DNA from: a bacterium
GTDB lineage: Bacteria; UBA8248
Reading direction: 5' to 3'
Length of the DNA stretch: 64,000 nucleotides
Assembly (NCBI GenBank): GCA_965204535.1
Contig: OZ241996.1
Location: forward strand, 288,001-352,000
The notes under the pieces were generated by a model, which was not told where the DNA came from, did no database searches, and saw nothing but the letters and a program-made list of their open reading frames with translations. Each line of letters opens with the position of its first letter. Within the stretch, counting starts at the first letter, position 1. The position numbers and the translations under genes are program-made. Positions 1-4,399 of the stretch are shown here, piece after piece.

Positions 1-17
1 CTAGGTGCAACAAGGTG

Positions 18-184
18 GTAGGGACAGGTCGCGACCTGTCCCTACGGGGCGAACGGAGCCTGGATCGTAGGGACAACCCCCTGTGGTTGTCCTTCTTTGT
101 GATGCTTACGACACGGACAGGCACGGGGGCCTGTCCCTACGCCATTCATCCTCGATGCGGGCGGACACATGGGTCCGCCCCTAA
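18..184. repeat. Cluster of four GTAG-type REP-like palindromes (18-45, 67-92, 115-140, 159-184)
   Basis: 18-45 is the perfect palindrome GTAGGGACAGGTCGCGACCTGTCCCTAC, identical to 60868-60895; the others are GTAG/CTAC-type hairpins with variable loops. Confidence 0.85.
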
Positions 185-207
185 GAAACCGTTGCCCTGC
201 GAACTCT

Positions 208-684
208 CTACTCGTCCACCTCCTCGAACTCTGCCGTATACTCCACCTGAATCCCCCGCTGAACGCTCTGGCTCGCCGGGCAGCCCTTCTCGTGCACGGC
301 GAGGGCGCGCTCTGCGTCTTCTCGCTTTCCCCTGGGGATTCGGCACTTGTAATTGACCTTGATCTTCGTGACCAGGGCCATGCCGTCCACGTTCTCGATG
401 ATGCCTTCCACTTCCGCCACGAGGTTGTCGGGGCTGCTCTTTATCCCGCGCGCATCCAGCGCGCCTCCCATGTTGCCCGTCAGTCAGCCGGCGACGGCGG
501 CCGCCAGGTGATCCAGCGTGGCCGGACGCTCTTCCTCGGGTTCCGCCTTGTAGAAGTTCTTGATGCCCCCGTGGATGCCGTAGGGAATCGGCTCGTCCGG
601 GAAGGCGTCGAGATAGCCCGTTTTCATTCCCCTGCCGGGCTCCTTGACGATGCGGGCCTTGGTGACGTGAATGACTTCGCCCAT
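208..684 (-). CDS. OsmC/Ohr-like redox protein, probable selenoprotein (in-frame TGA at 484-486)
   Basis: ORFs 484-684 and 208-471 are in one frame: ...LDHLAAAVAG-TGA-LTGNMGGALDARG...KGCPASQS; AAGGAG RBS before ATG 684; TGA sits at the position of the first OsmC catalytic Cys. Confidence 0.8.
448..464 (-). promoter_or_regulatory. Candidate bacterial SECIS hairpin
   Basis: On the minus strand GCGCGC-UGGAU-GCGCGC begins 19 nt after the UGA and has a G in the second loop position. Confidence 0.6.
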
Positions 685-783
685 GTCGGTCTCCTTGTTG
701 AAATGGGGTTTCGAAAAATTTCCTGAATGATTAGAAGCTCAAGGGTAGCACCCTCATGAGGCGAGGGGAACTCTCCCCCGGCT

Positions 784-1692
784 TTACGTGATGACGACGA
801 TGGTGCCCGCCACGGTCAGGAGCGCGCCGAGGACGAGCCGGGGCGTGATGTTTTCCATCTCGCGCAGGAAAAGCCAGCCCAGCACCAGGACGATGAGCGG
901 CTGGGCGGAGATGATGGCCGTCACGCGCACGGCCAGCGTGTGGACGAACGCGAAGTTATAGAACGGAACGGCGATCGTCTGGCAGACGGCTGCGGCGAAA
1001 ATCCACCTCCAGGCCGAGGCGGGGATGGGGCCGCGCGATTCCTCGCCCCTGTCGAGCGCCATCAGCAGCGACGCCGTGGCGGCCCCTACCCAGAGCGCTA
1101 TCGCGGCGGTGGCGAGCGGGTGTAGGTTCAGGGACGCTTTTTTGAAGAAAACCGCGGCCACGCCCCAGAGCAGCGAGGTGACCCCGGCGGAAATCCAGCC
1201 GAACAGCTTCCACCGCGCGCCGTGGGCTTCGGCTTCCGCCTCCCGGGATGGTTCGGCCTGAACGATGAGGGTGATGCCGATGAGGAGGATCGCGAGGCCG
1301 GTGAAGATGGAGATCGTCGGCGTCTCCCCGAGCATGAACGAAGCCCCCACGGCCGTTATGGCGGGGTACGTCAACGCGATGGGGATGGAGCGGTTCGGCC
1401 CGATGCGGTGGATGGCGCGGTAATAGAAGGTGCGCGATATGCCGATGTGGAAAAAACCCGCGAGGAAGGCGAACACAAGAGTGGCTGTCGTGACGCCCTG
1501 AAAATCGTCTTTCGAGATGAGGCCGATGGCGATGAGCGTCACGAGAGCCGCGTTCACGCTCGTCATGACGGCGGTGACCTTGAGGACGGGCGCGTTCATG
1601 AGCGCGCGCTTGATGAAATAGACGAACACCGCCCATGCGGCCGAGGCTACCGAGGCCAGAAGCACGCCGTAGGCGTTCGATTCGGGGTTCAT
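784..1692 (-). CDS. DMT/EamA family transporter
   Basis: About 10 hydrophobic segments in two repeated halves; FYYRAIHRIGPNRS and LFLREMENIT EamA-like motifs. Confidence 0.85.
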   Translation of the reverse strand: MNPESNAYGVLLASVASAAWAVFVYFIKRALMNAPVLKVTAVMTSVNAALVTLIAIGLISKDDFQGVTTATLVFAFLAGFFHIGISRTFYYRAIHRIGPNRSIPIALTYPAITAVGASFMLGETPTISIFTGLAILLIGITLIVQAEPSREAEAEAHGARWKLFGWISAGVTSLLWGVAAVFFKKASLNLHPLATAAIALWVGAATASLLMALDRGEESRGPIPASAWRWIFAAAVCQTIAVPFYNFAFVHTLAVRVTAIISAQPLIVLVLGWLFLREMENITPRLVLGALLTVAGTIVVIT

Positions 1693-1754
1693 CTCGGCTT
1701 ACCGCGCGGGCGGATGCGCCGCGCGTCGAGACCTTCGGAACGTGGCCAAAGGGG

Positions 1755-2378
1755 TTATTTGTCGGTATTGATGCAGAGCACCGCGCGCCAGTAGTCAAAG
1801 ATGTTCACGCGCTCCTGGCGTTCGAGAGTCAGGTTGTTCGCCTCGAGCAGGGGTTCGAGGTCCAGAGTGGTCTCCCATCCGAATTTCTTGCAGACCCCGT
1901 TGATGAGTTCTTCGAACTTGGCCAGCAGAAGTTTCTGGCTCTTGAAATGGTTGATGAAGACGATGCGCCCGCCCGGCTTGCACACGCGGCAGATCTCCGA
2001 GACGACCTTGTGCGGGTCGGGGGCGGCGCTCACCACATAGCAGGCGGTGACGCAGTCGAAGGTGTTGTCCGCATACGCCATGTTCTGCGCGTCCATCACG
2101 GAGAGTTCGACGTTTTGAAGGCGCATCTTCTCGACCTTCTCCTTCGCCTTCTCGAGCATTTTCGAAGAGAGGTCGATGGCGATGATCTCCGACGTCGACG
2201 GGTAGAGCGGCAGGGAGAGACCCGTGCCCACGCCCACTTCGAGCAGTTTCTCGCCCGGCTGGAGGTCGAGCAGGTCGACGCCGACGTTCCTGCCTTCACT
2301 GAACACGTGCTTGAAGACCAGGTCGTAGAATTTCCCCCAGCGATCGTATATCTTGATGACAGCGTCCGGCGATTCCAC
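1755..2378 (-). CDS. Class I SAM-dependent methyltransferase, PmtA (phosphatidylethanolamine N-methyltransferase)-like
   Basis: LLEVGVGTG motif I; YDRWGKFYDLVF and NHF motifs; GTG start with GAGGGG RBS inferred. Confidence 0.75.
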   Translation of the reverse strand: MESPDAVIKIYDRWGKFYDLVFKHVFSEGRNVGVDLLDLQPGEKLLEVGVGTGLSLPLYPSTSEIIAIDLSSKMLEKAKEKVEKMRLQNVELSVMDAQNMAYADNTFDCVTACYVVSAAPDPHKVVSEICRVCKPGGRIVFINHFKSQKLLLAKFEELINGVCKKFGWETTLDLEPLLEANNLTLERQERVNIFDYWRAVLCINTDK

Positions 2379-2591
2379 TTTGCACCCCTCTATAAAGCTC
2401 CCGCGCTCGCAACTGCACGCGAATCCGGTGGGCGACGGGCATACCAACCGCGAATGTATCCGGCATACTTCCCGGATTGAACCAATTCTCTTCCTTCCAT
2501 CCTTCCAACTTCGGAAGATATGCCATATTGTAAGAAAAAATAAAAATTTTTTCCAGACCAATCGGCAATGGTGATTACGGGGGAACAGGAC

Positions 2592-3377
2592 ATGGCGTGG
2601 GAGACAATCGGTTTCGAGCAAGAGGGGGGCTTGGCCCTCGTGCGGCTCAATCGCCCCGAGGCGCTGAACGCGCTCGACCGGCAGATGGCGAAAGACTTAT
2701 ACGAGGTGTGCGAGCGATGCAGCGAGCCCGACATCCGCGCGATGGTTCTGAGCGGGGCGGGGCGCGCCTTCTGCGCGGGCGGGGACCTGAAGGAGATCGA
2801 GGCGCGCATCCGGGCGGGCGAGCGGATGGAGGAGTTCCTCTGGCCGGATTATCAAAAAGCGCTGGCGAAACTCCATGAGGCCCGCTGTCCGACGATAGCC
2901 GCCGTTCACGGTTTCGCCGTAGGCGCGGGATGTGATATCGCTTTGGCCTGCGACATCCGCCTGGCGGGCGCGGGCGCGTCGTTCGGGCAGGTGTACTCCA
3001 GGGTCGGACTCGTCCCCGATTGCGGGGGCACGTTTTTCCTGCCCCGCGTCGTGGGCAGCGCGAAGGCCCTGGAGTTGATTTTGACGGGCGACGTCATCGA
3101 CGCGGAGGCGGCGCTCGCCATCGGCCTCGTCCGCTCGGTTCATCATGACGACGCGCTCATGGAGGAGGCGACAGCACTTGGGCGAAGGCTCGCCGAGGGG
3201 CCTTCGATTGCGCTTCGCGCGGCGAAGAAGCTGATTCGCGCCTCAGGCGGCCTGGATGTGGCGACGGCGCTGCGCGCAGAGGCGAGCGCGCAGGCCGAGA
3301 CGGTCGCCAGCCGGGATTTTCAGGAAGGAATCGCCGCCTTTCTGGAGAAGCGAGAACCCAGGTTCCAGGGCAAGTGA
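2592..3377 (+). CDS. Enoyl-CoA hydratase/isomerase (crotonase) family protein
   Basis: LNRPEALNAL, AFCAGGDL, VHGFAVGAG, GLVPDCGG and C-terminal EGIAAFLEKREP motifs. Confidence 0.9.
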   Translation: MAWETIGFEQEGGLALVRLNRPEALNALDRQMAKDLYEVCERCSEPDIRAMVLSGAGRAFCAGGDLKEIEARIRAGERMEEFLWPDYQKALAKLHEARCPTIAAVHGFAVGAGCDIALACDIRLAGAGASFGQVYSRVGLVPDCGGTFFLPRVVGSAKALELILTGDVIDAEAALAIGLVRSVHHDDALMEEATALGRRLAEGPSIALRAAKKLIRASGGLDVATALRAEASAQAETVASRDFQEGIAAFLEKREPRFQGK

Positions 3378-3436
3378 ACGAACTCCGGCGATTCGGAACC
3401 GGCGCCGTATAGCCATATAAAGGACGCTTCTCGAGG

Positions 3437-4399
3437 ATGGAAGCATATTTCGCAAGTTTTCCCATCTGGGCGAATCTCATCTTCTTCGCCGCGGGCCTGC
3501 TCATCGTCACGAAAGGCGCCGACTGGTTTACCGACGGCGCGGTGGGAGTCGCCGAAATCACGGGAATTCCCAAGGTAATCATCGGCGCCACCCTGGTGAG
3601 TCTGGCTACGACGGCGCCCGAGTTCAGCGTCTCCGTCATCGCGGCCTGGCTGGACCATCCCGCCACGTCCGTGGGAAACGCGGTCGGCTCCACGGTCTGC
3701 AACATCGGACTCATCCTGGCGGTGGCGTTCCTGCTCGAGCCCGTGTCTCTCGCCCGGGCGGACGTTTTGCCGAAAGGCCTCTTCATGCTGATGATGGGCG
3801 TGTTGCTCCTCACCCTGGGCTGGGACGGAGAAATCGCCCGCGTCGAGGGCGTGGTCTTGTTCGTTTTCGTGCCCGTTTATCTGTGGTTCACCATGAAGCG
3901 GGCCACGTGGACGGATTTCGATATCGGGAGCGCCGTGACGGACCGGGAACAGCAGCATATCGGGCTGCGTTTCATCGCCGGCTCGCTGGCGGTCGTTTTC
4001 GGCAGCGTTCTGCTCGTTCAGAACGCGGTGCATCTCGCCCGCGCCATGGGCGTTCCCGAACTCATCGTCGGCCTTACGCTCGTGGCCGTCGGCACCTCGC
4101 TGCCCGAACTGATCACGGCCGTCTCCGCATCCTTGAGCGGTCATGGGGACATGGCCGTCGGCAACGTGCTGGGGGCGAACGTCCTGAACATCGCATGGGT
4201 GCTGGGCGGGGCGTCTCTCATCGCGCCTTTGGGGATAGAGCATCAATCGTTCGTTCTGGATTTCCCGTTCATGCTCTTGTTGATGCTGATGTTCTTGCTT
4301 CTCGCCTTGTGGAAGCGCGGCATGGGGCGCAGGGCAGGGATCATGTTCCTGACCGGATATGTATGCTACCTGGCGCTCATTTTCGCTTATTTCGTTTGA
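3437..4399 (+). CDS. Ca2+/Na+ antiporter (YrbG/CaCA family)
   Basis: Two alpha repeats: ATTAPE...GNAVGS and GTSLPE...GNVLGAN. Confidence 0.9.
   Translation: MEAYFASFPIWANLIFFAAGLLIVTKGADWFTDGAVGVAEITGIPKVIIGATLVSLATTAPEFSVSVIAAWLDHPATSVGNAVGSTVCNIGLILAVAFLLEPVSLARADVLPKGLFMLMMGVLLLTLGWDGEIARVEGVVLFVFVPVYLWFTMKRATWTDFDIGSAVTDREQQHIGLRFIAGSLAVVFGSVLLVQNAVHLARAMGVPELIVGLTLVAVGTSLPELITAVSASLSGHGDMAVGNVLGANVLNIAWVLGGASLIAPLGIEHQSFVLDFPFMLLLMLMFLLLALWKRGMGRRAGIMFLTGYVCYLALIFAYFV

Follow-up and report, generated by a model that had tools for sequence, protein, structure and literature searches.

Two adjacent open reading frames separated by a UGA codon form one conserved OsmC-fold gene with a predicted selenocysteine at the catalytic cysteine position

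On the minus strand of the window (the whole stretch of 64,000 nucleotides analysed here), two short open reading frames follow each other and are separated by a TGA codon. Are these two genes, the remains of a broken gene, or a single gene in which UGA is read as selenocysteine (Sec)? The reading frames at 684-484 (66 aa) and 471-208 (87 aa) lie in one frame. If the TGA (486-484 on the minus strand, codon 67) is translated as U, the gene at 208..684 comprises 158 codons and ends with TAG; the protein contains AAAVAG-U-LTG (U67) and, further downstream, KG-C135-PAS (GCPAS). Translation thus confirmed what the initial annotation had described: two reading frames in one frame, the TGA at 484-486, a protein of 158 aa and both motifs. 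Its coordinates and motifs were correct, but the strand had been left out: the feature is on the minus strand, and the plus strand of 208-684 does not encode a meaningful protein. The AAGGAG ribosome binding site assigned to the upstream ATG was located at 696-691 (691..696, minus strand), 6 nt ahead of the start codon, and GGAG-type motifs precede the ATG in the homologous loci listed as well. A scan of window positions 1-2700 for promoters and terminators gave signals at chance level. As foreseen for standard gene callers, the databases contain the gene as separate fragments of 66 aa and 87 aa, the latter starting at an internal ATG (Met72, 469..471) that is not conserved. The analyses below show that both fragments belong to a single conserved gene, which encodes a small OsmC-fold protein. 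For the complete reading, one intact gene in which UGA encodes Sec and which yields a 158-residue OsmC-fold selenol/thiol redox enzyme, we estimate a probability of about 0.9.

Codon 67 is TGA in all 111 distinct homologous coding sequences (143 loci, 54-99% identity). Codon 135 (TGC, 280..282 on the minus strand in the window) encodes Cys in 110 of them, the remaining locus being truncated; one locus has a second stop. One of the DNA-level searches behind the 143 loci used the best 80 of 272 confirmed stretches, and distant Cys forms are therefore under-sampled at the DNA level. A single TGA was present in all 34 matches from 33 of 41 related genomes and in all 48 matches from 47 of 51 genomes of the host phylum. 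Named relatives are records of Nitrospinota, Ca. Tectomicrobia, Rokuibacteriota and Methylomirabilota. The two halves of the gene have dN/dS values of 0.058 and 0.081 among 24 close relatives and of 0.088 and 0.150 among 57 more distant ones; both halves are under purifying selection. The initial annotation had asked whether reads might carry TGC or TGT instead. Contigs from other DNA runs (X3, X4, X5) and from RNA-library runs (X15, X16, X19) bridge the codon, and no difference is listed at 484-486; this comparison is among the rows listed, and a further contig, X1, may be the window's own source. Sponge metagenomes are among the runs containing DNA of the window. The RNA-library contigs cover the gene, but as assembled contigs they are not a measure of its transcription; X15 and X16 both end near 690 and come from one study.

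Which residue do homologues have in place of the TGA? In a profile alignment, U67 and C135 match the two Cys of the T. thermophilus and E. coli OsmC proteins. In a clade of proteins that are 39-50% identical to the window protein, all 120 full-length members listed (the best 120 of 340 from a search with the Cys homologue P0024) have Cys both at column 67 and at column 135. The TGA thus stands where this sister clade has Cys and where OsmC has its peroxidatic Cys, and C135 is predicted to be the resolving Cys. According to the initial annotation, homologues with another residue at this column would speak against Sec. None were found among the 120 sister-clade proteins, but in the wider family (the best 150 of 758) 81 representatives span the column, 63 with Cys and 18 with another residue. 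These 18 argue against a universal Cys, and some lack the second Cys too. Some of them may be errors, being single-base neighbours of TGA; others without both Cys look like inactive paralogues. The close relatives with Gly (P0004) and Arg (P0026) at column 67 are single-member clusters known from protein records only. The remainder of the 150 are pieces: 19 stop at columns 64-68, 26 begin at columns 68-72 and 24 are of other kinds. Breaks clustered at this column are the signature of an unread UGA. N-terminal database pieces of more distant relatives (for instance those ending in AATAG or AATAA) have column 66 as their last residue, which hints that the wider family may include more subclades with a TGA.

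The genome has the machinery to decode UGA as Sec, which the initial annotation had proposed to look for. Profile matches above the cut-off were found for selA (573 bits), selB (389 bits), selD (332 bits) and tRNA-Sec (75.9 bits), and selD itself contains an in-frame TGA. Among other genomes carrying the gene, 31 of 32 have selA (the exception is 79% complete), compared with three of eight genomes without the gene; these are kin genomes and the counts are not independent. As a side observation, the genome is rich in selenoproteins. Of 20 in-frame TGA candidates picked by hand from 513 (L188-L207), 14 have a Pfam redox domain across the TGA: seven CMD/AhpD-like, one UGSC, one DsbA, two AhpC/TSA, two deiodinase-like and one thioredoxin. 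In two GrdB-like candidates and one rhodanese the TGA lies beside or outside the matched stretch, and three have no spanning match.

A SECIS-like hairpin, GCGCGC-UGGAU-GCGCGC, is located at 464-448 (448..464, minus strand), downstream of the TGA. Its 6-bp stem begins after 19 nt, and its 5-nt loop (458-454) starts 25 nt past the UGA and has a G at position 2; the folding energy is -11.4 kcal/mol. The stem and loop described initially were thus recovered, and they agree with the published bacterial SECIS model, given in the Fig. 2 legend of PMC13188914 as a loop of 3-9 nt, a stem of 4-16 bp, a G in the first two loop positions, a spacing of 16-37 nt and an MFE of at most -7.5. This comparison was made with our own simplified filter and not with bSECISearch. 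The filter also passes 139 of 1746 TGA-ended long ORFs of this genome (8%) at -7.5 and 56 of 1746 (3%) at -10.5. Compared with shuffled sequences, windows of 54-107 nt show no more stable folding (z +1.18, +0.38, -0.61, +2.30); only short windows chosen around the hairpin beat the shuffles (z -2.66, -3.08, -2.94). By itself the hairpin is modest evidence.

The strong evidence is its conservation in the homologous sequences. Synonymous divergence in codons 74-80 is 0.04-0.06 compared with 0.24-0.58 in the two halves of the gene, an approximately 4-14-fold suppression. In 35 representatives with less than 90% nucleotide identity, Ala75 is encoded by GCG in 35, Ala78 by GCG in 32 and Leu76 by CTG in 28, compared with 39-74% for the top codon of other Ala and Leu columns (column permutation p 0.0009, with relatedness ignored). 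All 109 TGA loci have Ala at position 78, which in the Cys clade is divided between Ala and Gly (68/52). Arg79 in the main clade is encoded by CGC or CGT and by no other codon, and either of the two can pair. With so little variation in the stem there is almost no covariation: no true compensatory changes were seen in the homologous loci, and the single common substitution is C to U, which leaves a G-U pair. A distant MTGTLAxALAARK subgroup has a weaker hairpin (-3 to -11 kcal/mol), often with the loop UAGCG. Following the established bacterial pathway, SelB carrying Sec-tRNA would bind the hairpin 20-36 nt past the UGA and insert Sec67. We regard decoding of the UGA as Sec at residue 67 as very likely.

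Other explanations of the in-frame TGA were weighed against this evidence. An in-frame stop in one lone genome usually means a pseudogene or a sequencing error, but here the same codon is present across several bacterial lineages, dN/dS is low on both flanks and independent contigs agree; both are therefore excluded for all practical purposes. The UGA might also be a true stop, with the 66-aa and 87-aa proteins made by translational coupling and assembling afterwards. Databases do call two genes, and of the 111 loci 24 have an ATG at codon 68, right after the stop, and 81 have one at codon 72. However, such a split would remove the catalytic residue and cut the helix 56-78, and 11 of the 111 loci have no in-frame ATG, GTG or TTG within 19 codons past the TGA. 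Moreover, none of the 111 loci has TAA or TAG in place of the TGA, and both the frame and the intervening residues are preserved, which makes two separate proteins very improbable. Equally slim is the chance that an alternative code or a mischarged tRNA-Sec assigns Trp, Gly or Cys to the UGA. Trp, Gly, Arg and Ser do occur at column 67 in a few distant database proteins, but 1746 of 3602 long ORFs of the genome (a heuristic ORF set) end in TGA, the Sec system is complete and the sister clade has Cys at the column. Decoding as Sec is thus the reading that we follow below.

PF02566 is matched by residues 53-149 of the read-through protein, a stretch that includes the TGA position, with 47.5 bits (cut-off 27.5); taken separately, the N-terminal half has no match and the C-terminal half scores 31.3 bits. 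In an AlphaFold model of the monomer (pLDDT 92, pTM 0.83) U67 lies in the middle of helix 56-78, and the Foldseek matches of the model are OsmC, Ohr and Ohr-like structures. The two catalytic Cys positions are those of the OsmC/Ohr superfamily, in which they lie some 60 residues apart, with a spacing between U67 and C135 (68) similar to that of Ohr (64). Other catalytic residues differ. In Xylella Ohr the catalytic Glu is found ten residues before the peroxidatic Cys (Glu51/Cys61; PMC5962072). The corresponding position is Leu57 in 108 of 109 TGA loci and in 119 of 120 Cys-clade proteins, followed by an invariant Asp58. Catalytic Arg residues are known from the beta1-beta2 loop in Ohr and from the loop before helix 1 in OsmC. 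By sequence position, Arg18 lies in the beta1-beta2 loop with Arg in 10 of 19 rows, and Arg53 is not a conserved residue of the Cys clade. In each of the two clades at least 90% of the sequences keep Asp58, His131, Arg79 and Arg143, His38 is present in all TGA loci and G70 is invariant in 229 of 229 sequences (109 TGA and 120 Cys). The Glu is likewise absent from the Cys clade, so Sec does not simply make up for its loss. The initial annotation had Sec replacing the peroxidatic Cys. This holds for the aligned position, but a protein without the catalytic Glu is no canonical OsmC/Ohr peroxidase, and here "peroxidatic" denotes a position only.

What could the enzyme do? From these comparisons we predict a redox use of Sec67 and Cys135 with high confidence, and the protein is probably an antioxidant-type redox enzyme. 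The most likely activity is that of a lipoyl- or dithiol-recycled reductase of organic peroxides. By analogy with Ohr/OsmC chemistry, the Sec67 selenolate would attack the oxidant, the resulting selenenic acid would be resolved by Cys135 to give an Se-S bond, and lipoylated or AhpD-like proteins would re-reduce this bond in a homodimer. Ohr and OsmC are reported to be re-reduced by lipoyl groups (PMC5384416), and AhpD is reported as the reductant of C. glutamicum OsmC (PMC8945050). At least seven genes of this genome are AhpD/CMD-like and carry a TGA within the domain.

The odds that peroxide is the main substrate are about even because the catalytic Glu is absent. PMC5384416 describes one Ohr-like protein without Arg and Glu that showed no peroxidase activity in one laboratory and activity in another. 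It is possible, although we think it somewhat doubtful, that Sec is inserted but the protein is no peroxidase. Sec67 and Cys135 might instead serve disulfide/persulfide exchange or the clearance of electrophiles or hypohalous oxidants, with a family-specific site formed by His38, Asp58, His131, Arg79 and Arg143. The Leu at the Glu position and the conserved residues of this site point in this direction, as do the neighbouring genes described below, a TetR gene and a second Sec-OsmC, and PMC5384416 and PMC8945050 treat Ohr-like proteins as uncharacterised. On the other hand, the closest curated model and the closest solved sequences are OsmC peroxiredoxins, and the spacing of the two catalytic positions resembles that of Ohr, both of which argue for the peroxide reductase.

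The 111 loci show no operon conserved across lineages that would point to a substrate. In 30 of them an NF041052-like gene with a TGA is found on the opposite strand, no more than about 3 kb away, a TetR gene is nearby in 28 (directly upstream in all but one), and both are present in 17. In Rokubacteria-type loci, as in L108, the NF041052 selenoprotein gene (1807-2322, minus strand; 164.5 bits), the TetR gene (2408-3019, plus strand) and the subfamily gene (3001-3468, plus strand) are clustered, and a glyoxalase-like gene adjoins. The TetR gene is presumably NemR-like. In the window, genes for an EamA transporter (784-1692) and a PmtA-like methyltransferase (1755-2420) lie upstream on the same minus strand. 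They are kept in 32 and 34 of the 111 loci, those of the window's own group, which also has a sodium:solute symporter on the other strand in 27 of 111; other lineages have different genes. Just past the stop of the gene, at 18-185, is a cluster of GTAG-type palindromic repeats, which we take to be REP-like; two of the units recur in the genome as 42 and 86 exact copies.

Eight OsmC-fold genes were found in the genome, five of them with a TGA: three true NF041052 members (163-183 bits), one of a HAGUGLY type (61.5 bits) and the window gene. The four others are L074:1450-1944 (minus strand), L076, L077 and L079. L074 is the HAGUGLY gene; it is below the NF041052 cut-off and may, from its sequence, represent a third Sec-OsmC type.

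The principle is not changed by this gene, since OsmC-like selenoproteins and the mis-annotation of UGA codons are already known. What is added is a second OsmC selenoprotein subfamily that can be curated, present in 47 of 51 genomes of the phylum and in Rokubacteria/Methylomirabilota, and stored in databases as an orphan of 66 aa and a stub of 87 aa without the catalytic residue.

OsmC-like selenoproteins were predicted in 2005 in the Sargasso Sea survey (PMC1088965) and are catalogued as one family with the motif UxxT (PMC2398784, PMC9312934, PMC13188914); in the table of a 2026 review they are given as predicted and not experimentally verified. The initial annotation was thus right that such proteins are known, but the window gene belongs to a separate subfamily and not to the described UxxT/NF041052 family. 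Like NF041052 (OsmC_like_Se), the window protein has the PF02566 fold, Sec at the first catalytic Cys, a second Cys that is kept and a hairpin 3' of the UGA. However, it scores 18.4 bits against a cut-off of 95, has U-[LM]-T-G (here U-L-T-G) instead of UxxT (the published representative MCS5647933.1 has GFULLT), is 23% identical to a true member from the same genome and sits on a separate long tree branch. Its loop starts 25 nt past the UGA, compared with 20 nt in the NF041052 genes of the genome. The 2026 review counts differing Sec motifs as distinct subfamilies, so that U-[LM]-T-G would be an unlisted one. The literature searched, leaving aside Haft and Tolstoy 2025 as well as Deng et al. 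2026, a survey of Methylomirabilota MAGs that may include such genes, contains no description of it, and a term search of PMC5029168 returned no OsmC. We tentatively propose an uncatalogued and widespread U-[LM]-T-G subfamily that would have gained Sec and SECIS independently of the published OsmC selenoproteins. Three separate Sec-OsmC lineages would then coexist in the genome, each with its own hairpin register (loop at +17, +20 and +25). In Rokubacteria-type loci the protein would partner the neighbouring NF041052 selenoprotein under TetR, with a His/Asp site replacing the Arg/Glu pair.

The window protein passes no NCBIfam model: with the OsmC (TIGR03562) and Ohr (TIGR03561) models it reaches 28 and 20 bits, below the cut-offs of 85.8 and 88.85. 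It shares with OsmC (E. coli 1QWI/1NYE, T. thermophilus 1UKK) and Ohr the fold (TM-score about 0.7) and the two-Cys register, but identity to these peroxidases is 14-24% and the catalytic Glu is absent and, by sequence position, none of the catalytic Arg sites appears to be conserved. Consequently, it is placed in the uncharacterised Ohr-like/YhfA group, which has two catalytic positions without the Arg/Glu pair according to PMC5384416 and PMC8945050. The Ohr-like Thermoplasma protein Ta0195 (2ONF) gave the best TM-score among the listed matches (0.75/0.83, rmsd 2.7). The window family differs from this group in having Sec for Cys as well as a family-specific G-x-H-G-G loop and a P-[AS]-T-L-D motif. 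Closest is the sister clade with Cys (P0024, P0123-P0240), whose named records belong to Acidobacteriota; it shares the motifs of the window family, with C-[LM]-T-G and thus Cys at position 67 where the window family has the TGA. In a 38-row tree a branch (98/100) separates the 17 sampled TGA forms from the rest, with 13 Cys forms next to them and NF041052 far away; owing to long branches, the deeper order of this tree is unsure, and the change may have run from Cys to Sec or back. With about 45% identity, these natural Sec and Cys versions are a clean pair for studying Ohr-like function and the contribution of selenium.
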